Notes under the pieces: model-generated
Databases searched by the model: none
What the model was told of the DNA's origin: nothing
What the model saw: the letters and a program-made list of their open reading frames with translations, nothing else
Made by a program: the position numbers and the translations under genes
Part shown: positions 2,728-44,201 of the stretch, piece after piece
How positions within the stretch are numbered: the stretch's first letter is position 1
Layout of the letters: every line of letters starts with the position of its first letter
From: a virus
Length of the DNA: 64,000 nt
Direction: 5' to 3' (one strand)
IMG/VR virus record: IMGVR_UViG_3300017971_000013
Span: 39,596-103,595 of that record

Positions 2728-4830
2728 ATGACTAGGTACTTTTTTGCAGGAGGGGACTCTAAGCCCGCAATTAAGTGTATGCTCGCATGTGACGTCAAAA
2801 ATATTCTGTTTAGCTTCTTCTATATACAGAAAAAGCGGCAGAAGAATTTTGATGCCCTTGTAAGTCAGCTGACAGAACTCAAGGAAAAAGGTGGTTATAC
2901 TTTTATCTTAGATTCTGGTGGCTTTACTTATAAAGATGTAGCGGGCCGAGGGTTTCAAACTGTTAGAAGTGAAGCAGGCGCTGTACGGACAAAGAAGCTA
3001 GATCCATATGCGTATTTAGAGGAATACACCAAATTTCTTATACAATATGGACACTTGTTTGATGTCTGTGCAGAGTTTGAACCGGACGAAGTGTTCGGCG
3101 GCGTAGATATTGTAGATGAGAACAGAGAGAAGATGCTAGCCACCTTCGAGAAGCACGGTGTAGAGGTTAACCTCATGCCTGTGTTTGATTCTTTCATAAG
3201 GGATCTAGATACGTGGGAAGAGTGGTGTGAAGATTCTAGATACAAGCATCTTGGTTTTGTGGGAAATGATATACGTCTTGCTTCTCGTCTTGTAAATAAG
3301 GCGCATAGACACGGCAAAAAAGTACATGGTTTCGCGCAGACTAAGATTGAGGATCTTCAAAGAGCTAAGTTTGATACTGTGGATTCTACAGGATGGATTT
3401 CTGGGCAGAAATATGGAGAGGTGTTCATATTTCAACGTGGTAAATGGACCAGACTAAACGCTACCCAAAAGAATAAGCGCAAGCTTTATAAGAACTATTT
3501 CAAGGCAATTGGGATAGATTGGGACCTCATCAATAGAGATGATCCCAATGAGTTACTTAAAGCCTCATGTTTGTCCTGGAAGCGTTTGTTTGATCACTTT
3601 GAGGCTAGGTCTATATTAGAGACAGCCAGTACCACCTCCTTAAAGAGAGCAGCACCAACAAAGCCTGTTCGTGGGGTGTTGATGCAGTTAGCTGAGCTTG
3701 GTGTAGACAAAAAACCACGGGAGCGTAATGTCCCAAAGAAGACAATCAAAGTGGGGGGTAAGATACGGCTTATGTCGACGAAAGCGACAGCGTTCGACGC
3801 ACAGAAGATCATTGCACGGGCGTTGGAGTTGTCGGAACTCCCTGTCGAGGAAGCCTGGGAAAAAGCCTTTGGGCGAGATGAGCAAGAAATAACTGTTGAT
3901 GAGCAAGAGATGAACGCGTTGTTTAAGCCTAAAAGAGCCAGAGGGTTTAGCCCAGAATGGTATGCGTTGCTAGACCAACAACGTCAGGTAGAAGAGGCAT
4001 TAGAAAAAGTCTCGGCAGACAATGAAAAAAGAAATAATAACTGGGACAAGTTCCTGGTGACTGAGCCTCTTATGTCCGAAAACGAGGTAATTTCGCAGGG
4101 TTCCATTTTAGGTGACACTACAGACTACACAAATATTAAACAAATTCAGGGAAATACCGCAGAAATGGCGGATGGATCGCACGTTGCTAAAGACAACGTT
4201 GTTAATAGCAACAGAGAAACTTTAGACAGTCAAAACGACCCTACAAAGCTCACATCATCGACGATTCGTAAAAAATTGTCCGTCCATGCGTGTCATACGT
4301 GCGCAGTTTCTACCGATTGCTCTTATTATCAACCTGGCTACTTGTGTTATTACAAACCAGCATTTCAAACGTTGCAAAGTCGCAATGTTAAAGATGTGAT
4401 GCAGGCGTTAGAGTATATAACGGACAAGAACCTAGAGAGAACGATGCGCGCGTTTTTGATGGAAGAGATACAGATGGGGGGTCAAGTAGACCCTCAAGCA
4501 TCAAATGTGTCTCAGTTAGCTTTCGGGCAGTTAGAGAAGCTAGCTTCACTGAAACATGCAACCAGACCCGAATCTTTCAAGGTAACACTCGAAGGACAAG
4601 GTGAGTCAGCGTCTATCTTGACCCAACTTTTATCGGGCGCAAAACAGCCCGAAGAGCCAAAACAGTTAGAAGCGCAAGAGACTAATATGATAGATGTGAC
4701 ACCTAAGAAGAAAGAGAGAATAGAAGAACGCGCGATAAGAGAGTCAAAACAGCAAGGTAACAGACAAGATGAATATGACATTACTGAATTAGCTACGATA
4801 CAGAAAATGTTTGTTCCTGATCAACAGTAG
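2728..4830 (+). CDS. TGT/DpdA-like transglycosylase (7-deazaguanine insertion) fused to a long C-terminal region with a Cys4 cluster
   Basis: N-terminal ~290 aa has ILDSGGFT, MPVF, KVHGF and FDTVDSTGW motifs typical of phage TGT-superfamily TIM barrels; queC and queD lie in the same window; C-terminus has CxxC-x4-C-x8-C. Confidence 0.65.
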   Translation: MTRYFFAGGDSKPAIKCMLACDVKNILFSFFYIQKKRQKNFDALVSQLTELKEKGGYTFILDSGGFTYKDVAGRGFQTVRSEAGAVRTKKLDPYAYLEEYTKFLIQYGHLFDVCAEFEPDEVFGGVDIVDENREKMLATFEKHGVEVNLMPVFDSFIRDLDTWEEWCEDSRYKHLGFVGNDIRLASRLVNKAHRHGKKVHGFAQTKIEDLQRAKFDTVDSTGWISGQKYGEVFIFQRGKWTRLNATQKNKRKLYKNYFKAIGIDWDLINRDDPNELLKASCLSWKRLFDHFEARSILETASTTSLKRAAPTKPVRGVLMQLAELGVDKKPRERNVPKKTIKVGGKIRLMSTKATAFDAQKIIARALELSELPVEEAWEKAFGRDEQEITVDEQEMNALFKPKRARGFSPEWYALLDQQRQVEEALEKVSADNEKRNNNWDKFLVTEPLMSENEVISQGSILGDTTDYTNIKQIQGNTAEMADGSHVAKDNVVNSNRETLDSQNDPTKLTSSTIRKKLSVHACHTCAVSTDCSYYQPGYLCYYKPAFQTLQSRNVKDVMQALEYITDKNLERTMRAFLMEEIQMGGQVDPQASNVSQLAFGQLEKLASLKHATRPESFKVTLEGQGESASILTQLLSGAKQPEEPKQLEAQETNMIDVTPKKKERIEERAIRESKQQGNRQDEYDITELATIQKMFVPDQQ

Positions 4831-4831
4831 C

Positions 4832-4860
4832 TTGATCGGCGCAAATCACTGTTGTAATAT
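4832..4860 (+). promoter_or_regulatory. Sigma70-type promoter (putative)
   Basis: TTGATC - 17 nt - TAATAT. Confidence 0.4.
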
Positions 4861-4975
4861 TGATCTTTACGTAAGAGAGGTAACACCTAAAAAAAACTTT
4901 GTTGTAAAAGAAGGTGAACCATGAACAACGAGGGTTAAACCCCTCAAGGATCGGTCTTTTCAGGACCTAGACCAT

Positions 4976-5017
4976 TACCCCGATTGAGTGTCAAAAACTT
5001 GGTCGGGGTATTTTTTT
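4976..5017 (+). terminator. Rho-independent terminator
   Basis: TACCCCGATTGAG/CTTGGTCGGGGTA stem followed by T7. Confidence 0.75.
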
Positions 5018-5064
5018 GCCTAACATTGCACTATTGCAACATCAAAACAAAAGGAGGAGACAAA

Positions 5065-5286
5065 ATGAACGTCACACTATACGTAACAGAAGAGACAAAG
5101 AAAGACATGGAGTATCTTAAGAAGTATCACAACTTCAAACCAAGTAAACTACTACAGGAGGTAACAACGCTCATCATGGAGAAAACTGAGATCTGTGCTG
5201 GTTGTCCAGCTCGAGCCGATGAAACGTGCGCGGTGTGTAAGTATAACTCTGTGACTATTATAGTAGAGAAACACTTAAAGAGATGA
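5065..5286 (+). CDS. Small DNA-binding protein, ribbon-helix-helix-like N-terminus plus Cys4 C-terminus (putative)
   Basis: AGGAGGAG RBS; MNVTLYVTEETKKDMEYLK...SKLLQE pattern; CAGC...CAVC. Confidence 0.55.
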   Translation: MNVTLYVTEETKKDMEYLKKYHNFKPSKLLQEVTTLIMEKTEICAGCPARADETCAVCKYNSVTIIVEKHLKR

Positions 5287-5319
5287 CGCTCCCCCGGAGA
5301 CACCTCAACGTCTTGTGGC

Positions 5320-5481
5320 GTGGTCTGTAACTACTGTTATGAGAGTATAACAGGCATTCCTTACATAGATGTTGAGGTGGAAGATATTGTCTATTGTGAG
5401 TCTTGTGCAGCTAAATTAGGAGGAACATATAATCTGGGGGTAATAGTCAACGGTCACGTGCAATCTAACGTCGGTGAATAA
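5320..5481 (+). CDS. Small zinc-finger protein (not in ORF track)
   Basis: VVCNYCYESITGIPYIDVEVEDIVYCESCAAK...; two CxxC pairs; in frame with the upstream gene. Confidence 0.4.
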   Translation: MVCNYCYESITGIPYIDVEVEDIVYCESCAAKLGGTYNLGVIVNGHVQSNVGE

Positions 5482-5719
5482 GAGGAGGGCAATCTAAAAG
5501 TATCCAGCGGGAATGAGATGAAAGAAAGTCCCCTCCGGCAGGAGGGTTAGGGTGTCGTTGTATTACCCTAAGAGAGAGAGACACACACACATACATAAGA
5601 GCATACAAGGAGGACAAGAGAGACAGAGTGACCCGATACCCACCGCATAAGACCTATTGTTTAGAGCATTCTTCACATAGAGGTGGAGTTACTCACATGA
5701 GTGGCAGTCCTCAGAAGTG

Positions 5720-6362
5720 TAAAGTGGAGTACCTAGGGGCCAGGTGGGGACTATACGTTATGAGCATATGCCCATAACCTAGTGTCTGCCATTCCACTTT
5801 TGTTCATCTACAACGTGTAAATGGCACCTAGGTGTACCCTAGACCCCCCCTGAGACCAACCTCAGTCCCCCTCACGCCCAGTAAAGTGATCAGTCAGTGA
5901 AAAGGGTCAGTCTTTGGGGGAGTGTATGGGGAGTTCAGTGTCGGGGCAGTGAGTTGGGAGTGAGTATTAAGTGAGTTCTTAACGAGAGTGAGTAGCCGAG
6001 AGCCCTCCTGCAGTGAGTGAGTCAGTGAGTTTCTTCTGTGCGATAAAGTGACACTCCACCAACCACCTCTTATCTCCAAACATTGCCACTTGGCAACCTC
6101 AAAAAGTCCACGTTCATACATTATAAAGTGATATCTTCAGACATCCTCTGTCAGGCAGCGACCATTTCCTACCTTAGCTGTCATTTTCCACTCAAAAAGT
6201 CTCGGCGTGAACGTTATAAAGTGCATGTGTACCTACTATAAAGTGTATACAGAGCACCAATAAAGTGATGTCTCGCAGCAGTTGGTAGTACAGAGCTATG
6301 CGAAATAAAGTGTTGCGGCGAAAGAGATAAAGTGTGGGCCAAAGTCTCATAGGAAATAAGTG
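5720..6362 (+). repeat. Cluster of TAAAGTG boxes (iteron-like), partly phased at 22 bp
   Basis: TAAAGTG at 5720, 5882, 6044, 6124, 6217, 6239, 6261, 6306 and 6328; 33-nt imperfect direct repeat at 6098-6130 and 6191-6223. Confidence 0.75.
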
Positions 6363-6400
6363 ACGCAGCTGCCGGAGCGGACGGACGAGGTCAGTGGTGT

Positions 6401-6523
6401 CCATATTCGGCCATTGACCACATATGGCGATTGAGGTGTCCATATATGGTGATCACCGCATATGGTGAATCCGACCCTTCTATCCATATATGGCGATTCA
6501 CCCCAAAATTCGACCATATCTGG
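6401..6523. repeat. Cluster of CCATATATGG-type palindromes
   Basis: Copies or variants at 6401, 6418, 6440, 6456, 6484 and 6514. Confidence 0.8.
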
Positions 6524-6998
6524 CGAATATCCTTTTAAACCCTTGAAACCATGGGTGAAATTCGATCCATCTCTGAAACCCCTCATTTCGGGACACGAAA
6601 GCTCTATATAATGATAAGGGCGACTGTGGCAAAATGTATACACTGTATATTCAGAGCAACACTTGGTTTGAGCGAGCAACCATGCGGACATGAGCAAATA
6701 CGTCCTATACCTACATGTCATACTGTATACATTTTGCTACAGGGTGTTGTGTTGACACCTTGCCATTTGGCAACGTCTGTTCTGTACAGGTTGTACTTTT
6801 TTCAACCTTTTTACACTCTGTAACATATTGTAATTATGTACAAAACAGCCACAGGCCGAAATTCGACCCAAAAAAACGACACAAAAAAGCGATGGTTGGT
6901 ATCGAACCTGCAATTTAACCTTTGTGTTCGCGGGGGCGAACAAGGGAAGCAAGCCCTACTTGCTAAGGTCCCTTAGGGGACCAAACAGCGGAGCTATC

Positions 6999-7235
6999 AT
7001 GGAATTGCTAGCTATCATCATGTTTTCGTTCCTTGGTCTGTTCGTTTCTTCTGTTGTAATTCAGAGCAACCTTGCCGTTGTCGTCGCGGCGACTAATCGT
7101 AAGAACTATCTCGATTTCTGCGAGAATGTAGATAGCGAGCTGAAAGCTATTCATAGACAAATGTACGTAGACGAGATTGTCGCTGAAAGCGACATTTACG
7201 CGGCTGTTGATTGTTTGGGTCTGAGACTACGCTAA
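6999..7235 (+). CDS. Small membrane protein (early-type cassette)
   Basis: GGAG RBS before ATG 6999; N-terminal hydrophobic helix. Confidence 0.65.
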   Translation: MELLAIIMFSFLGLFVSSVVIQSNLAVVVAATNRKNYLDFCENVDSELKAIHRQMYVDEIVAESDIYAAVDCLGLRLR

Positions 7236-7272
7236 AACGGTTTTAGGGCGGTTCGATTCCGCCCTTAGCGTA
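7228..7272 (+). ncRNA. tRNA-like minihelix (acceptor-like stem + T-arm, no anticodon arm)
   Basis: TACGCTAA/TTAGCGTA stem enclosing GGGCGG-TTCGATT-CCGCCC. Confidence 0.5.
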
Positions 7273-7341: not shown

Positions 7342-7674
7342 ATGCCCACTAAGAACACTAAAAACACAAAAACGATGATTGACCGACTTCGTGCATTGGC
7401 CGTAAACGGCGACCTGTTCATCCCCTTGGATAGCAAGGGTGAGAAGGTGCTTGAAGCTATCACCTTGAATCAGCTGTTGCAGGCTAGCGCAGGAATCGAA
7501 CCGTGTCACGTTGAAGCGGTCTGGCGCTTAGAAGGTAAGGGTGGTTCGTGGTTGTATGAGCGTCGTTTCAAGGGCGGACCACAGATGAAGCGTATCAAAC
7601 TGCGGACACCTATCGAAGGTGTCGTTGTTTCCTTCCCTTCTGGCGATGATACAGAAGACACCGATCTCTGGTAG
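7342..7674 (+). CDS. Hypothetical protein (early-type cassette)
   Basis: AGGAG RBS; 110-aa ORF. Confidence 0.75.
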   Translation: MPTKNTKNTKTMIDRLRALAVNGDLFIPLDSKGEKVLEAITLNQLLQASAGIEPCHVEAVWRLEGKGGSWLYERRFKGGPQMKRIKLRTPIEGVVVSFPSGDDTEDTDLW

Positions 7675-23466: not shown

Positions 23467-23646
23467 ATGGCAGTATTTTCTGAACCTATAAGGTTTACGG
23501 GTAATGTGGAAGATGGAACAGGGACCATAAGCTTAGCTGTAAATGATACAATGGTTACTGTGAAAAGCATGTCTAAAAGAGAGGTACAGCAGCTGTATGC
23601 TGAGCTAGACCTTTTCCTCAAGACTCAAGATGAGGAGGAGGAATAA
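23467..23646 (+). CDS. Small hypothetical protein
   Basis: GGAGG RBS before ATG 23467; TAATG coupling to the next gene. Confidence 0.6.
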   Translation: MAVFSEPIRFTGNVEDGTGTISLAVNDTMVTVKSMSKREVQQLYAELDLFLKTQDEEEE

Positions 23647-25505
23647 TGCCTTTCTCTGACGAGGAAATTCGCGTAAAATCTGATAAACTTTCTTTGCAGA
23701 TTTCAGGAGGCGCGGATCAGGCTCCAGGAAAAAAGTTCTGGTATAATGAGGAGCATCCTTGGTCTCCTATTGTTGTACCTGATAACATTTGGTCTGATTT
23801 TGCTACAATACCTCCAGCTACAACGCCAGCTCAGGCAGATGCAAATGCTATAGCTAATCCCACTATTATTGAAAGGTTGGAAACCAGGTTAACTAACAAT
23901 CCAACTAGCAATAATAGGCAATATGAAGCTAGACAAACTTATGGTGATCGGACCAGTGATATTTATGTCAACTGGATCCAGCCTGCTCTCGTTAGAGATA
24001 GCGGTGCGCCCTCAAACGGATACATCATCCGACTGTATAATGGTGATCCCTCTGGAGGCGGTGTAGAGTTACCAACTACTTGGAATGGTGGTCCAGATGG
24101 TGCCCCCTCTTGGGAATGGAATTACTCTACTGGTGTTTTAAAGGTTTCTACTGATCAATCTGCAAACTATGGTGCTATAGATGCTGGCGCCGGTTTATGG
24201 GTTCAGGGTTTCAGATATATCGGGCCTACAGGAGGAGGTGCTTCCACTGTTGCAAGCACACCTAAAAGACTTGGCGCAATTGATATAGATGGCGCAGTTA
24301 ACCTAGTAAATACAGATTATGTTTTGTACACTGTTCCAGCAGGGTCTTATGCATTATCTGCCTTTGTTGTTGTGTGTAACAGAAACGCGGCGTTGGCAAC
24401 AACTGTAAGAATTGCACATTCTGTGGCTGGGCCACTAAACAATGAAGATTACATATTTTATGATGTAGATGTGCTAGCTTACGAATCTAAATTCATTTCT
24501 ATACCAGGCATGTCTGCTGGTGATTATATTACAGTAAGAGCAGATACTTCTGATACGGATTTTATGATTCGTGGTTTTGAAGATGTTGGAACTGCGCCTG
24601 TTCAACGCATAGCAGCGCTTGCCACAGATATAGGAACCAGAAATACAGATCTCCAAGCCTACTTAAGTACACAGGATTCTAGTGATGTTAAATACTACAT
24701 TTGTAATCATAATGGTGCTTTAGCTACGCGCGTGCGCGTGGCGCATATAGATGATGTTGTTGTTGGTAGTTTACTACCAGAGGACTACGAACTATATGAG
24801 GAAGAATTAGTAGCCACTGAATCTAGAGGATATTGTACTGGTCTTCAAATGTCTGCTAATCAGACTTTGATGTTTCGCGCAGATGAAGCAGATGTGAACA
24901 TTGTTGTTTATTGTTCATTTGGAGGAACGGGTGGAGGCGGTGGAGGAGGTGTTTCTTTATGGCAAGAAATAGGTACCGACTTAAGTCCTCTAACTCCAGG
25001 TAACAATGTGACTGTTCCTGGCGCAAGGCTGACTCTAGGTGATGATGTAGATCCTCAATTCTTTGAATCCATCACACAAGCTTCAGGCCAAGCTACCCAG
25101 GTTGGTGACAGCCAATATGAACGTGTTGTCTGTTATGGTGAGACTTTTGATGCGGCCTGGACAGTTCTCTATCCAGGCGGCAATGCCGCTAACAATTTGA
25201 CTTTAGTTGCAGGTTCATCTTATACTTGCAGGGTTCTTGTAACTGGAGTTCAGTACGGCGGCATTTTAGGGTCTCAGTATGATACTTGGGCATATGAATT
25301 GATAGGAAACATTGTGCTGGCCGGAGGTGTCACTACAATGCATTCTTATATCTCAAATACAATATTTGAAGCAGATAATACCTTTGATGTGCAATTAGTT
25401 GCAGATGACATCAATGATGCAATTCAGGTCCAGGTTAGAGGCGGTGTTAGTAAGTCCGTGCGATGGACCGCCGTTGTTGAACTTATAAATAGTTATGGTG
25501 GCTAG
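23646..25505 (+). CDS. Multi-domain tail-fibre/adhesin-like protein
   Basis: Gly-rich linkers; two tandem beta-sandwich repeats (VCNRNAALATTVRIAH / ICNHNGALATRVRVAH); C-terminal VRWTAVVE domain. Confidence 0.7.
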   Translation: MPFSDEEIRVKSDKLSLQISGGADQAPGKKFWYNEEHPWSPIVVPDNIWSDFATIPPATTPAQADANAIANPTIIERLETRLTNNPTSNNRQYEARQTYGDRTSDIYVNWIQPALVRDSGAPSNGYIIRLYNGDPSGGGVELPTTWNGGPDGAPSWEWNYSTGVLKVSTDQSANYGAIDAGAGLWVQGFRYIGPTGGGASTVASTPKRLGAIDIDGAVNLVNTDYVLYTVPAGSYALSAFVVVCNRNAALATTVRIAHSVAGPLNNEDYIFYDVDVLAYESKFISIPGMSAGDYITVRADTSDTDFMIRGFEDVGTAPVQRIAALATDIGTRNTDLQAYLSTQDSSDVKYYICNHNGALATRVRVAHIDDVVVGSLLPEDYELYEEELVATESRGYCTGLQMSANQTLMFRADEADVNIVVYCSFGGTGGGGGGGVSLWQEIGTDLSPLTPGNNVTVPGARLTLGDDVDPQFFESITQASGQATQVGDSQYERVVCYGETFDAAWTVLYPGGNAANNLTLVAGSSYTCRVLVTGVQYGGILGSQYDTWAYELIGNIVLAGGVTTMHSYISNTIFEADNTFDVQLVADDINDAIQVQVRGGVSKSVRWTAVVELINSYGG

Positions 25506-26745
25506 TATGCAAAACAATGTCCAAGGAAAGGTCGTTGGCTTGGGCGGTAATTTGCCGAGCCACGTAAGACTGGAACCTTCTTTTCATGATCATTGTAACT
25601 GCAGGGGTTGGACTCCTGCAGCCCTTGGGTCTGGAAATAGTTTCCTTAATAGGTTTTGGAATAGGGCAAACACTGATTGGAACAATCATTGGAAATATAA
25701 ATGGTGGGAATTCTTTCCTCAAGGAGGTACTGTAGATCCATTTGGTCCAAGAAGGTTTGATACCACTGTTGAACTTGCTAATTACCTAGCTGATAACCTA
25801 CCGATGCTTGCTGGCAATTATGATGATGGTGTGAATGTGCGGTGTTATGATGCCGTAGATTATGCTGATTCATTTCCGCGCATAAGAATTGTTCGCAATT
25901 CTATTATAGGCTCGGTTAGAGGCAGGCGTAGATGGTTAGTAGGCTTTAGCTCCGAAACTTGTGGTATTTCTTCGGGCTTTAATGCCCCTAACTATTATGC
26001 AGGTGGCTTTCCTGGTAACACGGGTCGTTTGTTTGTTCAGAAATATACAGGCTTTTTACCAGGGACAAATAACGATGACGTTGTGTGGGCTACGAGGAAG
26101 AAACGCACTATGTGGTCGTTCCCTAAGGTAGGTAATCTGATTCAAGACTTACCCCCTGGAGCAAGAAGGGCTGCGTGGAATACAAACACTTTAAATTGGG
26201 TGACTCCAGCTCCTCAGCTTAGTTACGCATTTCAAAATCCTTTTCTGTGGTATGAAAACTACTGGGGCGGGGTTTTGGCTGTTGGTTATCCTAGTGACTT
26301 AGGTCAATCTTACAGAGAGGCTGTTCTTAATGGACCAGCAGCACTTGTGTTTCCTGTAGTCTCTGGGGATCATGTCGCTTTTGCTGTTTATCCAATGGGT
26401 TTTGATACTTTTTACACGGATAGACTAGGTACAGACGAAGAGCTTATCACAAAAGCAACCTTTAAAAGACAATCAACTCCAAGATACAAAGTTCTAACAT
26501 CTTCAAGCGTCGATCGTGATGTTGAAATGTTCCACACCGGAGACGGTGGAGGAAATCATTTTATGCAGTCAACGGATTGGCCAAACTCAAGCAATGATGG
26601 TATACGTGTACCTCATAAGGTGTATGTAGCTAAACGTAACACTGTGACAGGTGTGCGTTCAAAATGGGTTAAATTAGGAATCTTTCATCATCGTGTTCCT
26701 CATTCATCCCATAGGTTTGATCCAGCCTATAAATGGACAGGATAA
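25495..26745 (+). CDS. Unknown protein, paralogue A (followed by 3x30-nt hairpin array A)
   Basis: 416-aa W/R-rich ORF; aligns by eye with the C-terminal ~400 aa of 27275-28987; alternative start 25507. Confidence 0.8.
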   Translation: MVASMQNNVQGKVVGLGGNLPSHVRLEPSFHDHCNCRGWTPAALGSGNSFLNRFWNRANTDWNNHWKYKWWEFFPQGGTVDPFGPRRFDTTVELANYLADNLPMLAGNYDDGVNVRCYDAVDYADSFPRIRIVRNSIIGSVRGRRRWLVGFSSETCGISSGFNAPNYYAGGFPGNTGRLFVQKYTGFLPGTNNDDVVWATRKKRTMWSFPKVGNLIQDLPPGARRAAWNTNTLNWVTPAPQLSYAFQNPFLWYENYWGGVLAVGYPSDLGQSYREAVLNGPAALVFPVVSGDHVAFAVYPMGFDTFYTDRLGTDEELITKATFKRQSTPRYKVLTSSSVDRDVEMFHTGDGGGNHFMQSTDWPNSSNDGIRVPHKVYVAKRNTVTGVRSKWVKLGIFHHRVPHSSHRFDPAYKWTG

Positions 26746-26788
26746 GATTCAGATGTTGCCAACTGGCAATGTTTGATTCCCCGTGAGA

Positions 26789-26878
26789 GGGGCTGCTATG
26801 TAGTAATGCAGCCCCAACGGGGTCACTTTGTAGTAATGTGGCCCCAAAGGGGCTGCCTTGTAGTAGTGCAGCCCCAAT
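26789..26878 (+). repeat. Array A: three tandem 30-nt hairpin repeats (candidate structured RNA)
   Basis: GGGGCTGC-TATGTAGTAAT-GCAGCCCC-AAC / GGGGTCAC-TTTGTAGTAAT-GTGGCCCC-AAA / GGGGCTGC-CTTGTAGTAGT-GCAGCCCC-AAT; compensatory stem changes. Confidence 0.9.
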
Positions 26879-26927
26879 GAGATGCCTCTAAAGGAGAGCC
26901 AGCCAGGTTCGATTCCTGGGCATCTCA
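26879..26927 (+). ncRNA. Anticodon-less tRNA-like element
   Basis: 7-bp acceptor stem GAGATGC/GCATCTC + A; D-like arm CTCT-AAAGG-AGAG; T-arm CCAGG-TTCGATT-CCTGG; only CCAG where the anticodon arm would be. Confidence 0.7.
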
Positions 26928-26954
26928 CTTTTGTGTTTCACTAAGAGGAATGTA

Positions 26955-27278
26955 ATGAAAGAATTACAGGTTAGAGGCACTACTGGTCAAAGACACTCTG
27001 GTGGGCAGCAAAACACTACGTCTGTATCCACCTTGACTGTGGCAGATTATGATTTAACTGATATGCGTTACGGGGGAGAATTCCTCCTTACGCCAGACGG
27101 TTCTTCTACTTTGTTAGAGTTGCTTCAGGCCGAAGCTCCTTGGGATTTGATGGAGACTTATACACTGGAGGAGCCTCCAGAAGATAATCAGTTAAGTTTA
27201 GCTGTGGTACCTTCGGCCGGTGCCACTGTTCGTGTTTTGTTGACTGCACGAATTGATTGTCAGGATCCTGTAACATGA
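26955..27278 (+). CDS. Small protein, paralogue of 37992-38348 (fibre-associated/chaperone candidate)
   Basis: GAGGA RBS; GGEFLLTPDGSSTLLELLQ...VPSAGATVRV...DCQD vs GGDVVLDADGTKNILELIQ...VPVSGSKVVV...TCEE. Confidence 0.7.
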   Translation: MKELQVRGTTGQRHSGGQQNTTSVSTLTVADYDLTDMRYGGEFLLTPDGSSTLLELLQAEAPWDLMETYTLEEPPEDNQLSLAVVPSAGATVRVLLTARIDCQDPVT

Positions 27279-28987
27279 TTGAAAGCACAAAACCTAATAT
27301 AGATTTTGCGGCAAGAGACACAGCTTTTTTGACTATGTCAGCGCCGCAGAATGCTAATCTAGCTGTCGGAGATCATGTTGAATTTAACTTAGTTGAAGGA
27401 AACATCCCGTTATCTGTAGGAGCCGGACAGGCTAACGGTGTTTTGACTTTAACTAACAGCAAAAAATATAAACTAGAGGCCAATGTCTCTTGTGCGTTCG
27501 GCGCAACAAATGATTCGTGCTCATTTGTCTGGTATGACACAACAAACAACACTGAGATAGGGAAAAGGTCTGATTGTTTCTCTGTTTCTGGTTCAGCTAC
27601 AGAGAGTTCTGTCAGCACCGTGCGCGCGGTGGTAACGCCAGGGGCAGACATAAACGTAGAGCTTAGAATTATCGCTGTCAGCGGTACTGTTACACTCATT
27701 TCTAACTCCTTTGCAAATGGGTGGGTAGAGAGCTTAGAGGCGTATATAAATGTAGTGCCAACTTTTGATGTTCATGTTCCCACTATAGAATATGACACGT
27801 TCACTGTTGGCATACACGACTCTACAAACTGGTCTGGTTCTGCTTTTGATTCTTTGGCGGATCGTCAAGCGGCAGATATAAACAGAAATTTCTCTAACTA
27901 CACACAATGTTTTTGGCGCTTGTATGAAAGAGAGGTAGGCACTAACCTTTTGGTTAATTACTGGGAAGGTTTGCAATTTGCCTCTATTGCCGCTCTTTAC
28001 ACCTTCATAAGAAATAACTGTGTAGAAAGTGGGACGGCTCCAGGGACACCAGCCAATGATATCATCGCTACTGCTTATGATATCATTGATGACACGGTAC
28101 AGCGCGTTAACCGTATTTATGGCCTGAATACTTTTCTTGCTATATTGAAAGGTCGGCGCAGGTATTTGTCATCCAACTTTGATGAATGTGTTTTAGACGA
28201 AAATCTGTGTTCGTGGGGACAGCTTGGTAACTGGATTGATGATCTGAATGCCAACGCGCCTGGGTGGCTTAATCCACTTTCGTCTTGGGCTCCAGGTTCT
28301 AATGAAGAGAATATTGTTTGGTTTTCAAGGAACATAAAGAAACTTTATGGGCTTCCAAACATCTCTACTGTGTTTATGAATCTGACTGCTCTAACAAATA
28401 GACGTGTTTGGGATTGGGGTGCGTCTGCTGTGGTCGCAGCCCCTCTTGGTGGTTATCAGGGCACAGGGCCGAGCGGAGAGCCTAAGATTTATTGTTCGTT
28501 GGATATGCCTACTCAAACGTGGACGTTTTTTGACACTACGTTGAGAGATCATTACGTACAGCAGTTTAACGGAGATAAATCTATTATAGTGCTTTATCAA
28601 CTGTCCAGTACTGCCGATCCGAACAAAAGAGCTGTCTTAGCAAAGCCTCTTGGTATAGATAGGGTTTCGATTCCTTGGTTTGATTCTTCTGTGTATGACT
28701 TATACGCTCTGTATAATCGTAAGAATCAGACACACAATATTCGCGGTCCTTTGACTAGTACCTTCGAAGATGTTATAGCTAATAAGAAGTGGGTGTTGAA
28801 AGATCAGTGGATGCATCCTTCTAAGTTCGATACTAAAGCTTCTGCAAGAATGGTTGGTACTCAAGAGTACACAACTAGATTCTTTTTGCGGCATAAATCT
28901 ACAGGGCGTATCTCAAAGCCTAGCAGCGCCAGAATAGTATGTGCCCAGAGGCACAGAGACGCTATGTTTAAATTTGAGGTACGTTAA
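27275..28987 (+). CDS. Unknown protein, paralogue B: N-terminal C1q/BclA-like beta domain + domain shared with 25495-26745
   Basis: ATGA-coupled start 27275; N-terminal VEFN..GNI...GVLTL...YKLEANVS jelly-roll pattern; followed by hairpin array B. Confidence 0.8.
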   Translation: MIESTKPNIDFAARDTAFLTMSAPQNANLAVGDHVEFNLVEGNIPLSVGAGQANGVLTLTNSKKYKLEANVSCAFGATNDSCSFVWYDTTNNTEIGKRSDCFSVSGSATESSVSTVRAVVTPGADINVELRIIAVSGTVTLISNSFANGWVESLEAYINVVPTFDVHVPTIEYDTFTVGIHDSTNWSGSAFDSLADRQAADINRNFSNYTQCFWRLYEREVGTNLLVNYWEGLQFASIAALYTFIRNNCVESGTAPGTPANDIIATAYDIIDDTVQRVNRIYGLNTFLAILKGRRRYLSSNFDECVLDENLCSWGQLGNWIDDLNANAPGWLNPLSSWAPGSNEENIVWFSRNIKKLYGLPNISTVFMNLTALTNRRVWDWGASAVVAAPLGGYQGTGPSGEPKIYCSLDMPTQTWTFFDTTLRDHYVQQFNGDKSIIVLYQLSSTADPNKRAVLAKPLGIDRVSIPWFDSSVYDLYALYNRKNQTHNIRGPLTSTFEDVIANKKWVLKDQWMHPSKFDTKASARMVGTQEYTTRFFLRHKSTGRISKPSSARIVCAQRHRDAMFKFEVR

Positions 28988-28999
28988 CAGTGTTTTGGC

Positions 29000-29089
29000 G
29001 GTTCGCTCGATTAAAGACGAACTGCGTTAGGTTCGCTCGATTAAAGACGAACCGTATTTGGCCCGCTCGATTAAAGACGGGCCACATAT
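29000..29089 (+). repeat. Array B: three tandem 30-nt hairpin repeats (candidate structured RNA)
   Basis: GGTTCG-CTCGATTAAAGA-CGAACT / GGTTCG-CTCGATTAAAGA-CGAACC / GGCCCG-CTCGATTAAAGA-CGGGCC; invariant 12-nt loop; double compensatory change TT/AA to CC/GG. Confidence 0.9.
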
Positions 29090-29092
29090 TCC

Positions 29093-29146
29093 AATAATTC
29101 CCCTCTTGTGTAACTTTCTCCTACATGAGAGGGGAATTATTATTTC
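29093..29146 (+). terminator. Long inverted repeat closing array B (terminator/processing hairpin)
   Basis: AATAATTCCCCTCT (29093-29106) / AGAGGGGAATTATT (29128-29141). Confidence 0.65.
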
Positions 29147-32012: not shown

Positions 32013-32918
32013 ATGATTATTTTGAATACAAGGGAATACAATGGCTATAATATGGATGATCAGGACACTATGTTGGCAACAGGTGATGAAACTATCACCG
32101 GAGGTTCTGGCACAGTATCTACCGGCACAGTAACTACTGGAGGAGGAGCAACCACATTAATTGATTCTGCAGCTACTTTTGTGACTGATGGTGTGGCTGT
32201 TGATGATGTGGTTATAGTGCCTACTGATAACACAGCAATAGCAAAGGTCACTTCTGTGGATAGTGAAACACAGCTGACCACAGAAATTTTAAGCGGTGGA
32301 TCTAGTTACAATGTAGGTGATGGTTACTCTGTTGAGAATTGTGATTCTTTTACAGAAAGCAGCCCCAACGCTAGAACTGGGCTTATTTTACCAAATGCAT
32401 CGATAACTACTTCAGGTAAGATAGGGGATGCTTTTAATTTCGACGGAAACTTACAAAGCATTGTAACTTTTGGTAATCTTCCAGCTTTTGAATTAGGTAG
32501 CAACGACTTTACTATGGATGCGTGGGTGTATCCTACTGTAAGCTTTTTTGGTGCCATTATAGCTAAATACAGGGTCAGCATAGGTTGGTTATTCAGGGTG
32601 AATGGGACGTCGGTTGATTTTTACACCGGAACAGGTGGTATTCTTCTAGGTTCAGCTGGAGGTACCGTACCTTTAAATCAATGGACGCATGTTGCCGTTG
32701 TGCGTAAAGGGAATCAATGGCGTCTTTATGTTAACGGTGGTATAAGAGATTCCTTGAATTCTAGCCATGTAGTACCTACTTCTAATGAACAACTCTGGCT
32801 GGGAAGACAGAATTATCAAAGCCGTGTTTTGACAGGACGTATAGACCATGCCCGCTTGAGCATAGGAATGGTGCGATGGGAACGTCCTTTCGAACCTCCT
32901 GCACGTGTGTTTTACTAA
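32013..32918 (+). CDS. LamG/concanavalin A-like lectin domain virion protein
   Basis: DFTMDAWVYP, NQWTHVAVVR, LYVNG and GRIDHARLS. Confidence 0.85.
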   Translation: MIILNTREYNGYNMDDQDTMLATGDETITGGSGTVSTGTVTTGGGATTLIDSAATFVTDGVAVDDVVIVPTDNTAIAKVTSVDSETQLTTEILSGGSSYNVGDGYSVENCDSFTESSPNARTGLILPNASITTSGKIGDAFNFDGNLQSIVTFGNLPAFELGSNDFTMDAWVYPTVSFFGAIIAKYRVSIGWLFRVNGTSVDFYTGTGGILLGSAGGTVPLNQWTHVAVVRKGNQWRLYVNGGIRDSLNSSHVVPTSNEQLWLGRQNYQSRVLTGRIDHARLSIGMVRWERPFEPPARVFY

Positions 32919-32928
32919 GGAGATACCA

Positions 32929-33225
32929 ATGCCTATTGGAAGAGGAAACATTAGTGATAGTCCAGGAGGAGGCGGCGGACCTATTGCTGCTAATCTTGTT
33001 ATTCTTGATACCACAAATTTTGATGGGGCGTTAGGGCCGGGCGATGTCAATGTGCAAATCGCCATGGAAACCTTAGATGATGCTATTCCTGCAACACTAA
33101 GCGGCGCAGGTTCGCCGGACGGCGTTGTAAATGGGGCATTCGGACAAGGTTATTATGACACAACAAATTTACTTTGGTACAAATGCACATCTGATCCGTC
33201 CGGGTTAAACTGGACGGTAATCTAA
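32929..33225 (+). CDS. Small virion fibre-like protein
   Basis: AAGGAG RBS; shares an N-terminal motif with 21667; C-terminal GSPDGVV.G..G..Y.DTT..WYK..W motif. Confidence 0.7.
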   Translation: MPIGRGNISDSPGGGGGPIAANLVILDTTNFDGALGPGDVNVQIAMETLDDAIPATLSGAGSPDGVVNGAFGQGYYDTTNLLWYKCTSDPSGLNWTVI

Positions 33226-33265: not shown

Positions 33266-35086
33266 ATGGCACTTAGCTCTACTTACAAACAGCATAATTA
33301 CCTTGGTGAATATGCAAATGATGCCGCAGCTCTAACTTTTCTTCAGGCGTGTGAATGGGATACTAATTCAGACGGAACTGGTAACCCTAGAAACGGTATG
33401 TGGTACTATGATAGTACCAATAATAAATTTCGTGCCTATATAAATAGCGCTTGGGCCGATATGGATACGGGAGCGGCTATTGTAGATAGACAGGATGTCT
33501 ACGATCAAGACCCGGCGGTTCTAGTAACCGCAGCTGGTGGTGCGCACGGCGCAACACTGAACGACAATGGCGCGGAATTTGAAATTGGCTCTGGTGGCGC
33601 TGACCAGTTTAATCTGACACGCTCAGCGCTCGGTGAAATAACCGCTGATTGGGATCTAGAATCTATTGACGCGGATGTGGCCGGGGATGTCGCCATTACG
33701 TCTACAGGCGGCAATGCGACGTTTGAAGGTGACTCAGATGTCACTCTTCAATCTACCAGCGGCTCTGGCCGTGTGTTGATACAGGCTGGCGGTGGCGATA
33801 TTGACGTCGATGCCTCTCAGATCACCCTTGACGCGGGCTCGAATTTCAGCATTGACGCTACTGGTTCTGCGTCGAATGTCAGCTGTTCTGGTGGTGACCT
33901 GACTGTCTCTGCTACTGGTGCAGGTAATGACTTGTTGCTTTCGTCAGCTGCCGCAGAGGTGGATATCACTTCTGGTACGTTGATGGACATTAATGCTGGC
34001 GCTAATTTAGATATGGATGTCACAGGTACGTGTGATATCGATTCTACAGCTGCTATGACGTTGACGGCAGCAGGCGCGGCGCTTAACCTTGTTACTACAG
34101 GTTCTGGTGATGTTGTTCTGAACGCGGCTGATGATATCGATGCCAACAATAACATTATCAAAAACGTTGCTACGCCCACGGCCGGTTCTCATGCAGCTAA
34201 CAAGAGCTACGTGGATGCTGCTGTTAGTGGTTTGCAGTGGCTAGAACCAGCAGATGTAAAGGGCTATATTGGTTCTAGAACGATCGCAGAAATCAACGCT
34301 CTCACACCGAGCGCTGGTGATGCTGTTGTTGCAGCTTCTGCTGGTACACCTACTGCAGGTACTTCAGATGCTTTAGCCATTGGTGATATTGCAGAATATG
34401 ATGGCACTAGCTGGCTACAAATTGTAGCTAACTCTGGTGGTTTTCCTCCTGCAGACACTCGGGCGCTTGTTGCCGATGGTGCCGCTACTCTTTATGCTCC
34501 TCTTACTGATAATACGGACGAAGGTAAGGTTGCAGAGTGGGATGGCACCTCTTTAACGGCTACACTTGATACACCTGATGATGGTGATGCTATTTTGATT
34601 AACGGAGAAGGTTCTGTTAATGAGAATAAGCAATTTGTATTTGATGGTTCTGTGCCCACTGGAACGTGGGTGCAATTTGGTGGCACAGGCCTGGCACATA
34701 GTTCTTTATCGGGATTAACTGCTGGCGATGACCATACCCAGTATGCTCTGCTTGCTGGCCGTGCAGGCGGACAGACTCTTATTGGTGGTACTGCTGCCGG
34801 TAATGACCTGACTCTTACTGGTTCTTCTGGTGGTGGCGGTACTATCATTATGTCTGATGATGTAGACATGGGTGGTAGTCAGCAGATTACAAATTTGCAA
34901 GCGCCAGCAGCCAACGGAGAAGCCTTGCGTTATGAAGACTCGCCTATTGTGTCCACTAATGCTGGTCCCCCTGAAGGTTCTGTCACGGCCACTAAAAATG
35001 GCGATATTTGTGTAGATACTACAAATAGTCTTGCTTATATTAAGACTTCAGGTGGCGCTACTAACACAGGCTGGGCTGTGATGTAA
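33266..35086 (+). CDS. Tail-fibre-like protein
   Basis: N-terminus shared with 35166; HAANKSYVD and HSSLSGL..DDHTQY fibre motifs. Confidence 0.8.
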   Translation: MALSSTYKQHNYLGEYANDAAALTFLQACEWDTNSDGTGNPRNGMWYYDSTNNKFRAYINSAWADMDTGAAIVDRQDVYDQDPAVLVTAAGGAHGATLNDNGAEFEIGSGGADQFNLTRSALGEITADWDLESIDADVAGDVAITSTGGNATFEGDSDVTLQSTSGSGRVLIQAGGGDIDVDASQITLDAGSNFSIDATGSASNVSCSGGDLTVSATGAGNDLLLSSAAAEVDITSGTLMDINAGANLDMDVTGTCDIDSTAAMTLTAAGAALNLVTTGSGDVVLNAADDIDANNNIIKNVATPTAGSHAANKSYVDAAVSGLQWLEPADVKGYIGSRTIAEINALTPSAGDAVVAASAGTPTAGTSDALAIGDIAEYDGTSWLQIVANSGGFPPADTRALVADGAATLYAPLTDNTDEGKVAEWDGTSLTATLDTPDDGDAILINGEGSVNENKQFVFDGSVPTGTWVQFGGTGLAHSSLSGLTAGDDHTQYALLAGRAGGQTLIGGTAAGNDLTLTGSSGGGGTIIMSDDVDMGGSQQITNLQAPAANGEALRYEDSPIVSTNAGPPEGSVTATKNGDICVDTTNSLAYIKTSGGATNTGWAVM

Positions 35087-35097
35087 TAATAAACCAG

Positions 35098-35142
35098 AAA
35101 ATACCCTCGGCTGGATGTCTGGTCGGGGGTATTTTATCTTTT
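35098..35142 (+). terminator. Rho-independent terminator
   Basis: AAAATACCCTCGGC/GTCGGGGGTATTTT stem with a T-rich tail. Confidence 0.7.
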
Positions 35143-35165: not shown

Positions 35166-37979
35166 ATGGCTCTGACTACGTCTTCGACATATAAACAGCA
35201 TAATTATATGGGCGAATATGCTGACGATGCGACAGCATTAACGGCCATTAGAGATCAAAATTGGGATTCAAACTCGAATGGCACAGGTAACCCCCGTAAT
35301 GGGATGTGGTATTACAATACAACGTCCAACGTTTTCAGAGCTTATACAAGTGGTGCGTGGGGCAATTTAGGAGGAGGGGGTTCTCCAGGAGGTGCGGATA
35401 CTCAACTGCAGTATAATAATAGCGGGGCATTTGGAGGAGATGCTGATTTAGCATGGGACGATACAAATCATTTTTTGCAGCTTGGAACACCAGCTCTGTT
35501 AATGACAGGTGGCCACACAACGCAAGACACCTACGTTAGCGACGGTGCTATCATCGTTAACACAGCGAGTGTAGGGTCGTCTTATCGGTCGATGCGTTTT
35601 CGGTGTGATTCCGTGATAAACAACTCGTCTCTGGCCAACATCCCGGATGAGGTGTATTGTGATATATATCCGCACGCGACGAACGGTGGCATGAACATCT
35701 GGGGGTTTAGTAACGACGCAGCCACAAGCCATGGTCTGCGGCTGCACGGACACTCACAGGTTGAGGATACGACGACAACTACTTCATCAAACGGGGTGGT
35801 TGAGCTGTATGGATCTCGTGGTTCGTTGAGTACAATTAGCGACTCTGGAAACATACTGAGTATCGATAGCGGCGGAACCAAATTTCTCATGAAGGGCGAC
35901 GGTGCTGTTCGTGGGTTAGGTTCATGGACGATAGGGTATGGAACAACATATGACGATAACCCTGGTACAAATGCTGACGGTCTCACACTTCATCAAGGGA
36001 TAGTTGACGCCTTTACATATGATGATCCTATTCTGGTAATGCGCGGAAATGGGGTATCAACCGGACTGACGGCTGCTACGTATAGAAATACTACGGAAAC
36101 GTACGCAAGGATACTCCAGGCAAACAAGAGAAATGGTGGCGCTCAGTTGGACGGGTTTGCTGAGACGTCGGCAGGTTTGGTCGGTATCAGGCTGCGGGCA
36201 ATCAGTGGACTGGCATCATCAGACCCATCAGCTGCTGCACCATTGGACTTGCAGTGTATGGAGAACTCTGGTGCAACATCTGGTACAGCAATTGCGGTTG
36301 GTGAGAACCTCGTTCGTTTCAGCGGGTTTAGTAATGCTACGTATTATGCATTCCAACATCGTAAGGCTTGGTGGCCAAGCGTCAAGTTAATTACAGGTGA
36401 TATTGGACTGACGTCAACTTATGACACTGTAAGTGACCGTGGTATATCAATCTATACAAACGGATTGGACAACTCCTTCGAAACATTTGCTCCGAATGTG
36501 GCAACAGGTGTGACGGAGATTGATGGGTCGGCATCTAGGGCTATCGATACGAGGACTACGTATTGCCTTCAGCAGCATTCTTCAAGTGCTGGCGGTACTC
36601 GCGTCATTGGACTGTCTGACCAAACTTATGGACTTTCATTAGAGGGAATTGGAAGGTCGGCATCATCGACTATAAGTACAGCATCAGAGGGTCCGATTTC
36701 GCTGCGCGGTCACAAGTGGGATAGCGTCGACACCAACACGTCACTTGCAGGTACTGAGGTGTGTTTCACGATTCGAAACTACACCACGACTCGCGCGGTA
36801 ATGACTGGAAACGGCGACTGGTTCTTCAGCGGCAAGATCTCCATCGATGAGAGCGGCAGTTTTGAGACCGCTCCAGATGTAGACTCCGGAGGTCTTTGTT
36901 TAAACCACGGTGCAAACGATGGGAATGTATTAACGTTTAAGAACTCTGATGTGAGCGTGCCTTACACCTCCGTTGTTGAAGCTGATACTTACATGGAGGC
37001 GCATAAACGTAGCGGCGATTATGGAGGGGCTATTTTCAGAGGCTACGCGGATTCAGGCACAGAGCCTGGTATGACTATACATGGCTTTTCTGTTACACCT
37101 TCAACTAGTGTAACTTCTACTACTGCTCAAGGCTGCACTGTTCTTAGAAGCTCTATGTCTGACGGTGGCACAGGGATTCAAGATGTGGACGATAACAGGT
37201 TGATGGTAACTATTCGTAACAGAGATACAAATAAGATCCAAATAGTAGGCGATGGATCTATGTACTTTGTAGATACCGATGCTGTTATTTCTACAGGAAA
37301 TGAAGATAGCCCAGATTGCTCGGGCGGAGGTATTTGTTTAAATCAAAACGCAGAAGATACTGATATTTTGACGTTTAAATCTTCTGATGTTGCTCATGGT
37401 ATGACAAACATTGCTGAGACTGATACTTATGGAACTTTTGCTAAAGGCAGCCCTGCTGCCGGAGCCTTGCGTTTAACAGGTTTAGCAGATTCTGCTCTTG
37501 CTATAGGAATAGCTTTACGTGGTTACGGAGGCACAACTGATAATACCACGGGTTCAGCGGCAATAGGTGCCATCACACTTGAGGGTGCATATGCTAATGG
37601 AACCGGTGTACAGGCGGTAGGAAATACAGATAACGTCTTCGTTGTCCGTAATAGAAATAGTTCGGAATTGATGTTAAAGGGCAATGGAGATCTGTATACA
37701 CAAACGGGCACAGGTGGTCCTTATGATGATGAGAACGATCTTGCGTTAGCCGAAGCAGCAAAATATGAAATGGCAGGATGTTATGATAGGATAACTAAAA
37801 AAGATCAAGAGAGGTTGCACGAATTAGGTATTATGAAAAATGGTTATGTTTGCCACCAAAAAATGATGGCGTTGCAACTAGGTGCATTTGGTCAGATTTG
37901 GAATGTTTTAAAAGGTTTAGCTGAAAAACTTGGTTTTACAGATGAGGAGCTTTTGGCCCTAACTAAGAATTATTCGTAA
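35166..37979 (+). CDS. Tail fibre/receptor-binding protein with ~150-aa internal repeats
   Basis: SPGGADTQLQYNNSGAFGG motif; repeats G.CLN.GA.D...LTFK.SDV...E.DTY; helical C-terminal domain. Confidence 0.8.
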   Translation: MALTTSSTYKQHNYMGEYADDATALTAIRDQNWDSNSNGTGNPRNGMWYYNTTSNVFRAYTSGAWGNLGGGGSPGGADTQLQYNNSGAFGGDADLAWDDTNHFLQLGTPALLMTGGHTTQDTYVSDGAIIVNTASVGSSYRSMRFRCDSVINNSSLANIPDEVYCDIYPHATNGGMNIWGFSNDAATSHGLRLHGHSQVEDTTTTTSSNGVVELYGSRGSLSTISDSGNILSIDSGGTKFLMKGDGAVRGLGSWTIGYGTTYDDNPGTNADGLTLHQGIVDAFTYDDPILVMRGNGVSTGLTAATYRNTTETYARILQANKRNGGAQLDGFAETSAGLVGIRLRAISGLASSDPSAAAPLDLQCMENSGATSGTAIAVGENLVRFSGFSNATYYAFQHRKAWWPSVKLITGDIGLTSTYDTVSDRGISIYTNGLDNSFETFAPNVATGVTEIDGSASRAIDTRTTYCLQQHSSSAGGTRVIGLSDQTYGLSLEGIGRSASSTISTASEGPISLRGHKWDSVDTNTSLAGTEVCFTIRNYTTTRAVMTGNGDWFFSGKISIDESGSFETAPDVDSGGLCLNHGANDGNVLTFKNSDVSVPYTSVVEADTYMEAHKRSGDYGGAIFRGYADSGTEPGMTIHGFSVTPSTSVTSTTAQGCTVLRSSMSDGGTGIQDVDDNRLMVTIRNRDTNKIQIVGDGSMYFVDTDAVISTGNEDSPDCSGGGICLNQNAEDTDILTFKSSDVAHGMTNIAETDTYGTFAKGSPAAGALRLTGLADSALAIGIALRGYGGTTDNTTGSAAIGAITLEGAYANGTGVQAVGNTDNVFVVRNRNSSELMLKGNGDLYTQTGTGGPYDDENDLALAEAAKYEMAGCYDRITKKDQERLHELGIMKNGYVCHQKMMALQLGAFGQIWNVLKGLAEKLGFTDEELLALTKNYS

Positions 37980-44063: not shown

Positions 44064-44201
44064 ATGGGTAATACTGGTGGTCGTCGACGTGGTCCTGGTG
44101 TGACGGCACGTCGGACCGGAACGCGACGCGCACGCGGTGGACGAGGAACTCGAGCACGAGGTGGCCGAGGAACACGCGCCCGCGTAGGACGTCGTCGTTA
44201 A
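44064..44201 (+). CDS. 45-aa Arg/Gly-rich protamine-like peptide (not in ORF track)
   Basis: AAGGAG RBS; MGNTGGRRRGPGVTARRTGTRRARGGRGTRARGGRGTRARVGRRR; TTGACA upstream (43994), hairpin downstream (44235-44269). Confidence 0.75.
   Translation: MGNTGGRRRGPGVTARRTGTRRARGGRGTRARGGRGTRARVGRRR

Follow-up and report, generated by a model that had tools for sequence, protein, structure and literature searches.

The window analysed here is a stretch of 64,000 nucleotides (nt) that covers bases 39596-103595 of IMGVR_UViG_3300017971_000013, a 103,595-bp IMG/VR viral record with direct terminal repeats. Two genes on its + strand, paralogue A (25495..26745) and paralogue B (27275..28987), are each followed, a short way beyond the stop codon, by exactly three hairpins repeated every 30 nt. 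The question raised by this locus is whether genes and hairpins belong together and, if so, what the hairpins do for the genes that they follow; an initial annotation, made from the sequence of the window alone, had proposed that each protein forms a cognate pair with its own array. We found that both genes belong to a family whose members form a conserved module, inherited as a unit: the gene itself, three hairpins on the sense strand whose loops are specific to that gene and, in most members, a further hairpin that resembles a terminator. Docking of the encoded protein on its own message is the function that we tentatively prefer.

Array A (26789..26875, + strand) consists of hairpins at 26789-26815, 26819-26845 and 26849-26875, with 8-bp stems of the form GGGGYYRC/GYRGCCCC and 11-nt loops (yWTGTAGTArT) whose TGTAGTA core is invariant; it contains one U-G pair, which is compatible with the + strand only. 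Array B (28998..29084, + strand), whose 6-bp stem cores lie at 29000-29023, 29030-29053 and 29060-29083, has stems of 6-8 bp around an invariant 12-nt loop, CTCGATTAAAGA; its stems show compensatory changes (GGTTCG/CGAACC to GGCCCG/CGGGCC) and its linkers are divergent. The initial annotation had described both arrays as three 30-nt units with covarying stems and near-invariant, array-specific loops, and this description held: Tandem Repeats Finder reported a period of 30 at 26799-26877 and 29000-29079, and a repeat search returned 3 × 30 nt at 26788-26877 and 29000-29089. The first stem begins 43 nt past the stop codon in A and 10-12 nt past it in B. Compared with shuffled sequences, the folding energies of the A and B intergenic regions gave z-scores of -7.9 and -5.9, with 0 of 200 shuffles folding as well, and the intergenic region after A is the most structured one in the whole 103.6-kb genome.

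The two proteins were also said to be homologous, and profile comparison bears this out. Paralogue A (416 amino acids (aa), isoelectric point (pI) 9.4) consists of the family's C-terminal domain of ~400 aa alone, while paralogue B (570 aa) carries a ~170-aa all-beta N-terminal domain (phrog_12269) in front of the same domain. BLASTP aligned them over 214 aa at 20% identity (E 4e-7), and hhalign matched the A and B subfamily profiles with 97.7% probability (E 1.8e-12) over 323 columns up to the C-terminus; because the profiles match over this length, we regard the paralogy as both old and real. When A, B and the one database relative of B were combined into a profile, a search of 1.84 billion proteins yielded 291 representative clusters, with E <= 1e-10 for 181. 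The closer relatives of A are 31-43% identical to it and those of B 30-40%. No relatives were found by single-protein searches of viral contigs with A, B and protein P0003, by metagenome and genome-contig scans, or by blastn and tblastn against GenBank phages.

In every family member the domain closes the protein, a median of 2 residues following it, and is preceded by N-terminal extensions that range from 0 to ~880 aa. Six of 40 members carry the Pfam domain Mtd_N, and one long member carries Laminin_G_3. Mtd_N forms the N-terminus of Mtd, the trimeric protein with which a Bordetella phage binds its receptor. The family domain itself corresponds to no Pfam, PHROG, NCBIfam or PADLOC family, and A, B, a 107-aa open reading frame (ORF) between them and a downstream 929-aa protein had no match in Pfam, PADLOC or NCBIfam. 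An AlphaFold2 (AF2) model of A scored a mean predicted local distance difference test (pLDDT) of 84 and a predicted template-modelling score (pTM) of 0.83. Foldseek against the PDB and BFVD, a wide structural alignment, a PDB profile search and the ESM Atlas yielded no convincing match to this fold, the best being a partial immunoglobulin/fibronectin type III (Ig/FN3)-like sandwich at Z 6.3. The domain tends to be basic (median pI 8.4, with 59% of domains above 8), and the neighbouring structural proteins of this phage have pI values of 4.0-4.7. Basic residues of the domain are conserved at positions 130, 142, 204, 225, 299, 381, 383 and 407 of A. The N-terminal domain of B matches PHROG 12269, which has no known function; its single-sequence AF2 model is all-beta and poor (pLDDT 38), and no homologues of it were found. 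The initial annotation had likened this domain to C1q, and a C1q/TNF-like assignment received no Pfam match at E <= 10 and no PDB sequence match. Taken together, these results define a family, as yet without a name, of proteins from the tail region of phages that share a C-terminal domain of ~400 aa, the predicted fold of which matches no solved structure.

If gene and array form a unit, homologues elsewhere should carry arrays of the same kind, as had been predicted. We compared this phage with seven other viral records, which were found with subfamily alignments and in whose loci family genes were then located by hidden Markov model (HMM) search; the eight records hold 14 family gene copies, 12 of them outside this phage. 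The GC content of the seven lies between 28 and 61% and their length between 21 and 676 kb; a provirus and two complete phages of ~210 kb are among them. Exactly three hairpins with a period of ~30 nt follow the stop codon in 14 of the 14 copies, a rule that rests on these eight records in a family of ~290 clusters. The first stem begins 4-19 nt beyond the stop codon in 13 copies, the A copy of this phage, at 43 nt, being the fourteenth. The number of hairpins is three throughout, over the entire GC range and at protein identities down to 12-20%. In most members a short-looped, GC-rich, terminator-like fourth hairpin stands 3-17 nt beyond the array, often with a U-tract; because of this hairpin, we place the arrays in the 3' untranslated region (UTR), at the end of the messenger RNA (mRNA).

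Tandem paralogues are instructive in this respect. One record contains four of them and two others contain two each, and every copy has its own array with its own loop sequence. In the four-paralogue record (L123, IMG/VR 3300017971_000328), the ORFs lie at 932-2350, 2854-4188, 4362-5702 and 5839-7032, and each is followed by its own triple hairpin, the four loop sequences being unrelated to one another; these four paralogues are the best natural test set for cognate specificity. A relative of the A type has three hairpins with the loop CAGGTAGCAGT and an ordinary UUCG hairpin at the position where A has a tRNA-like minihelix. No array precedes the first paralogue of a tandem set, and the genes downstream of the module differ between records. 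Apart from a protein with a phrog_9417 domain, present in three of the eight records, no second conserved gene accompanies the module.

The association also holds when it is approached from the side of the RNA. In the seven records that were scanned in full, hmmsearch identified 13 family genes, and all 13 have an array. A generic three-hairpin scan over both strands of these seven whole records (711 kb) returned arrays only downstream of family genes, which excludes a chance origin of the arrays; it missed two family arrays, a bulged-stem array of the A type (copy 4 in record G001) and one with divergent loops (G007). A DNA pattern that is blind to structure (three GG...G/C...C units), run over IMG/VR, returned 43 loci, of which the four with perfect stems are linked to family genes and the rest are coding 10-aa repeats with no family ORF. 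Scans of IMG/VR for the loop motifs found nothing for CTCGATTAAAGA in two copies and 118 loci for TGTAGTA in three copies, all of them short-period coding or simple repeats. In the eight records, a covariance model, R1, found no arrays beyond the seven on which it was trained, because it is too rigid for periods of 31-32 nt and for loops of 11 or 13 nt.

We next consider how selection has acted on the hairpins. When seven arrays of the B type were aligned without gaps, 126 of 126 cells paired and 15 of 18 pairs had changed on both sides; none of 500 shuffles reached this level of pairing, and controls with slid partners paired at 17-48%. The stems of 12 arrays (222 positions) contain 210 Watson-Crick pairs, 12 G-U pairs, no A-C pair and no mismatch. 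The polarity of 12 G-U against 0 A-C indicates that the structure exists on the sense strand and supports RNA as the selected molecule, as the initial annotation had concluded from G-U pairs in the window. Within arrays, loops are the most similar part (identity 0.91), followed by stems (0.78) and spacers (0.60). The loops measure 11-13 nt and the linkers between units 3-8 nt.

Loop identity falls from 0.92 within a genome to 0.48 between genomes of the closest clade. Related proteins share 10 of 12 loop positions at 50% protein identity, 8 of 12 at 55%, 9 of 12 at 42% and 7 of 11 at 34%, and overall loop similarity tracks the protein clades. Loops of the B type share a 3' consensus near YKARAGU, and their 5' part varies between paralogues; judged from the loop alignment, the 3' half might conceivably be T-loop-like. 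Orthology of the individual hairpins, taken one by one between genomes, was not significant (p = 0.11). No antisense site for the loops was found above chance in the mRNA that carries them or in the phage genome, which argues against an RNA-RNA partner encoded in cis. These results agree with the earlier proposal that protein and array co-evolve: gene and array are inherited together, and the loops are specific to each paralogue and follow the phylogeny of the proteins.

What, then, do the three loops bind? Loops that are kept alike within an array, but not from one paralogue or lineage to another, imply that a single lineage-specific partner is read by all three, and the upstream protein is the inferred partner since it is the only lineage-specific component that is always present. 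We therefore tentatively favor, as possible rather than probable, an element in the 3' UTR on which three copies of the cognate protein dock, in the service of assembly or feedback control. The three identical, paralogue-specific loops would be docking sites for three copies of one partner that evolves together with each gene; the most economical partner would be the C-terminal domain of the protein just translated from the same mRNA, at one hairpin per subunit. Newly released subunits would be gathered in cis on their own message, where docking would seed homotypic, probably trimeric, complexes and prevent the mixing of co-expressed paralogues; unassembled protein could also regulate how stable the mRNA that encodes it is, or how well it is translated. 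Docking of this kind fits the three sites, the basic domain at the very C-terminus, the short distance to the stop codon and the presence of Mtd_N in some members, the last of these being a hint, read from sequence, that the proteins may form oligomers.

A more specific version, which we regard as doubtful, is an mRNA-borne assembly scaffold in which each loop captures one fresh subunit through its basic C-terminal domain and so nucleates a homotrimeric fibre tip in cis. The paralogue-specific loops would here insulate co-expressed paralogues against mixed trimers, and in a stronger form of the same idea the RNA would stay bound as part of the mature appendage.

Several observations weigh against docking by the encoded protein. 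No known RNA-binding fold, nor indeed any other fold, matches that of the domain; B as a whole is acidic (pI 6.0), and ~40% of the family domains have a pI below 8. Plain physical linkage would likewise cause gene and array to be inherited together, and something other than the encoded protein, for instance a chaperone, a nuclease or a host factor, could be what constrains the loops.

This last point leads to the alternative that survives best, although we consider it unlikely: that another factor binds the array, be it a fibre-assembly chaperone, an RNA-binding regulator of the phage or a host protein, or that the array is mainly a module for 3'-end protection and termination that sets the half-life of the mRNA. 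Stable 3' stem-loops block 3'-5' exonucleases, the array is placed between the stop codon and a terminator-like hairpin, and the domain fold offers no hint of RNA binding. However, a common host factor or a pure effect on stability leaves two things unexplained: that loops strongly conserved inside each array are different from one paralogue to the next in a single genome and mirror the protein tree, and that there are invariably three hairpins. Nor does any second conserved gene travel with the module, apart from that of the phrog_9417 protein in three of the eight records.

It is rather improbable that the three hairpins and the terminator are released as a small RNA derived from the 3' UTR, with the loops serving in trans as seeds or decoys on host RNA or protein. 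Bacterial small RNAs of this origin have the same layout of stop codon, structured RNA and shared terminator, and small RNAs with several loops that repeat a seed exist; since no target was found in the phage genomes, any target would have to be in the host. Nevertheless, a small RNA acting on the host does not account for arrays that are tied exclusively to a single protein family in unrelated phages and hosts, for paralogue-specific loops within one phage or for the fixed number of three.

Very unlikely, in our judgement, is a role at the level of DNA, in which single-stranded hairpins or cruciforms would act as signals for recombination, mobility or replication at the 3' boundary of an exchangeable tail-fibre cassette, much as attC does in integrons. 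Tandem units of gene and hairpins in very different phage backbones do suggest a cassette-like spread. On the other hand, the excess of G-U over A-C pairs and the constant orientation with respect to the gene fit a transcribed sense strand; the combination of variable arms with a conserved center is the opposite of what is seen in sites read by dimeric DNA-binding proteins; the paralogue-specific loops would leave a single recombinase no shared homology; and no recombinase or reverse transcriptase is linked to the module. Finally, phages carry tandem antitoxin-like RNA repeats and repeat mimics, and the arrays resemble them in being tandem ~30-nt repeats without spacers, but an anti-defence function, as pseudo-antitoxins against host type III toxin-antitoxin (TA) systems or as mimics of clustered regularly interspaced short palindromic repeats (CRISPR), is the most improbable of all, given that ToxI-type and CRISPR direct-repeat (CRISPR-DR) families gave no Rfam match even at E <= 10, that PADLOC gave no matches, and that a strict tie to one structural-gene family and its stop codon is unexpected for a decoy. 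Docking of the cognate protein agrees better than any of these alternatives with the paralogue-specific loops and with the exclusive linkage.

The module of this phage has further structured elements around its arrays. An extra 10-bp hairpin with the loop CCAACTGG (26749..26776, + strand) stands between the stop codon of A and array A and is seen in this phage only. Beyond array A lies the tRNA-like minihelix (26879..26927, + strand), which combines an acceptor-like 7-bp stem (GAGATGC/GCATCTC) with a small hairpin and a T-arm (CCAGG-TTCGATT-CCTGG), runs out into a T-rich tail and takes the place of the terminator-like hairpin of other members. In the corresponding position, a 20-bp hairpin (29093..29141, + strand) followed by TATTTCC closes the B module. 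The initial annotation had viewed these two elements as 3' structural boundaries of the arrays; both are indeed present, but the tRNA-like one is peculiar to array A of this phage and falls outside the conserved module. We rejected the minihelix as a tRNA: ARAGORN finds none in the window, the tRNA-Sec model of Rfam scores 17 bits against a gathering score of 47, and its likeness to a cloverleaf is limited to the acceptor-like stem and a canonical T-arm.

The 11-mer of this T-arm, GGTTCGATTCC, occurs four times in the 103.6-kb genome, where ~0.05 copies would be expected by chance. Besides the copy at 26906, it is found at window 7205-7265 (genome 46800-46860), at genome 34054-34140, which lies before the window, and near window position 7492 on the - strand. 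The copy at 7250 is part of a minihelix of acceptor stem and T-arm that resembles the one after array A, and the copy at genome 34124 is part of a longer tRNA-like fold. The single true tRNA that ARAGORN reports in the whole genome is Leu(UAA), at genome 36017-36100. The phage thus seems to scatter tRNA-like minihelices across its intergenic regions, and these could be processing signals for RNase P/Z or decoys. A contig of another organism, from one sediment run, matches only the T-arm and acceptor part (window 26898-26930) and runs on into an apparent tRNA gene cluster; the minihelix may be a copy of the 3' half of a tRNA from a member of the community, possibly the host.

The genome in which the module resides is otherwise that of a phage with its genes almost all on the + strand (window GC 42.7%). 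Replication genes lie upstream and encode helicases, a family A DNA polymerase, a RecA-like and a ParB-like protein, and the region of A and B is a block of large acidic proteins with matches to Laminin_G_3 and to baseplate-wedge and virion-structural PHROGs. The phage sequence is identical in three DNA runs from marine sediment and seawater and therefore offers no natural variation to exploit; among the public runs listed as carrying it there is no RNA run.

Immediately upstream of A, a 619-aa protein (23646..25505, + strand) has an N-terminal phrog_9417 domain by PHROG match, and its ORF overlaps the start of A. A phrog_9417 protein is found directly 5' of the family gene in this phage and in two jumbo-phage records, and this arrangement is conserved synteny. 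Between the two modules, the 107-aa ORF (26955..27278, + strand), to which no function is assigned, is translationally coupled to B, its stop codon overlapping the B start (ATGA); it has no family match and no counterpart in the other records, and the small ORF upstream of the family gene in record G004 is not homologous to it.

Elsewhere in the window, similar DNA marks the 5' ends of large tail-region genes, with identities in the range of 73-76%: segment 21703-21819 resembles 32965-33081, at the starts of a 586-aa ORF and of the ORF at 32905-33225, and 33278-33336 resembles 35184-35242, at the starts of ORFs of 606 and 937 aa. These common segments suggest several fibre or spike proteins with a shared, putative N-terminal anchor. 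The 606-aa and 937-aa genes are separated by a very strong hairpin of 17 bp with flanking A and T runs (35098-35135), probably a bidirectional intrinsic terminator. A GC-rich 24-nt tandem repeat of 2.8 copies lies in or beside a short ORF between structural genes (44126-44191).

Whatever its mechanism, the module brings together a new conserved structured-RNA motif and a new protein family of ~290 clusters, connected by a genomic rule that holds for phages of AT-rich and GC-rich hosts alike and for genomes of 100 kb up to jumbo size. If the loops dock the encoded protein, the module would provide compact, portable and naturally orthogonal pairs of protein and RNA for recognition, with at least 14 different loop/protein pairs so far and four of them in one phage, and it would represent a new viral control over the assembly or amount of paralogous receptor-binding proteins. 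The assembly scaffold, if true, would introduce a new principle, the RNA-templated, self-addressed assembly of oligomers in a double-stranded DNA (dsDNA) virus.

How does the module compare with known systems? Full-text literature searches found no description of the motif or of the pairing of protein and RNA, and Rfam 15, searched over the whole window, gave no match at gathering thresholds and only chance-level matches in E-value mode. We considered and rejected several classes. The arrays do not fit a CRISPR array or a mimic of a catalogued CRISPR repeat, as their linkers measure only 3-8 nt and no CRISPR-DR family of Rfam matched at E <= 10. Repetitive extragenic palindromic (REP) elements, bacterial interspersed mosaic elements (BIME) and repeats resembling miniature inverted-repeat transposable elements (MITE) were set aside, there being no further copies of the loops or arrays in the 103.6-kb genome or in six other whole records. 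The three units do not fit an intrinsic terminator, having loops of 11-13 nt and no U-tract, whereas the separate fourth hairpin does fit one in most members.

Type III TA systems (ToxIN, CptIN, TenpIN) are similar in that a protein gene is coupled to short tandem structured RNA repeats of ~30-45 nt and a terminator. ToxIN forms a closed complex of three proteins and three RNAs, and this complex echoes the count of three hairpins in the present arrays. In type III TA loci, however, the repeats lie upstream of the toxin gene with a terminator between them and fold as pseudoknots, whereas the arrays described here lie 4-43 nt downstream of the family gene and consist of simple hairpins with 11-13-nt loops, their number fixed at three. 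Membership was rejected on the position of the array, on a ~400-aa domain that gives no ToxN/AbiQ signal and on the lack of an Rfam match. The initial annotation, which had set the locus apart from CRISPR and from ToxIN on its lack of variable spacers and on the downstream position of its repeats, was correct on both counts.

Diversity-generating retroelements (DGRs) come to mind because some family members share Mtd_N with the DGR target gene mtd, and because a functional hairpin lies immediately beyond the 3' end of DGR target genes. That hairpin is single and GC-rich, and the C-terminus encoded before it is variable; here there are three hairpins with long conserved loops behind a conserved C-terminus. 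Neither an RVT_1 (reverse transcriptase) domain nor a template/variable repeat pair was found in the genome, and no direct repeat involves the 3' ends of A or B, so that we rejected this class as well. The sponge RNAs CsrB and RsmZ resemble the arrays in presenting the same loop on variable stems, probably for docking at multiple sites. They differ in having GGA loops, in being free-standing genes and in having many hairpins, in contrast to exactly three hairpins that are part of an mRNA and specific to the upstream gene; most of the loops listed here contain no GGA, and membership in the Csr/Rsm class was rejected.

Further parallels are found among proteins that act on the RNA that encodes them. 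Surplus unassembled T4 gp32, RegA and gp43, like the P22 scaffolding protein, acts on its own mRNA, and autogenous control of this kind would explain why each paralogue has operators of its own. Known autogenous operators, by comparison, are single sites at the 5' end or ribosome-binding site, whereas here a triple array stands at the 3' end and recurs across very distant phages. The coat-protein operators and packaging signals of single-stranded RNA (ssRNA) phages (MS2, PP7, Qbeta) are, like the units of the arrays, hairpins with a specific loop on freely covarying stems. They are bound by a structural protein, and several copies of them promote assembly and repress translation. Their carrier is an RNA genome and their ligand a small coat-protein dimer, whereas the element described here would, judging from its position, lie in the 3' UTR of a dsDNA-phage mRNA, in three tandem copies and next to an unrelated 400-aa domain; these phage operators are the closest analogue for how the element may work.

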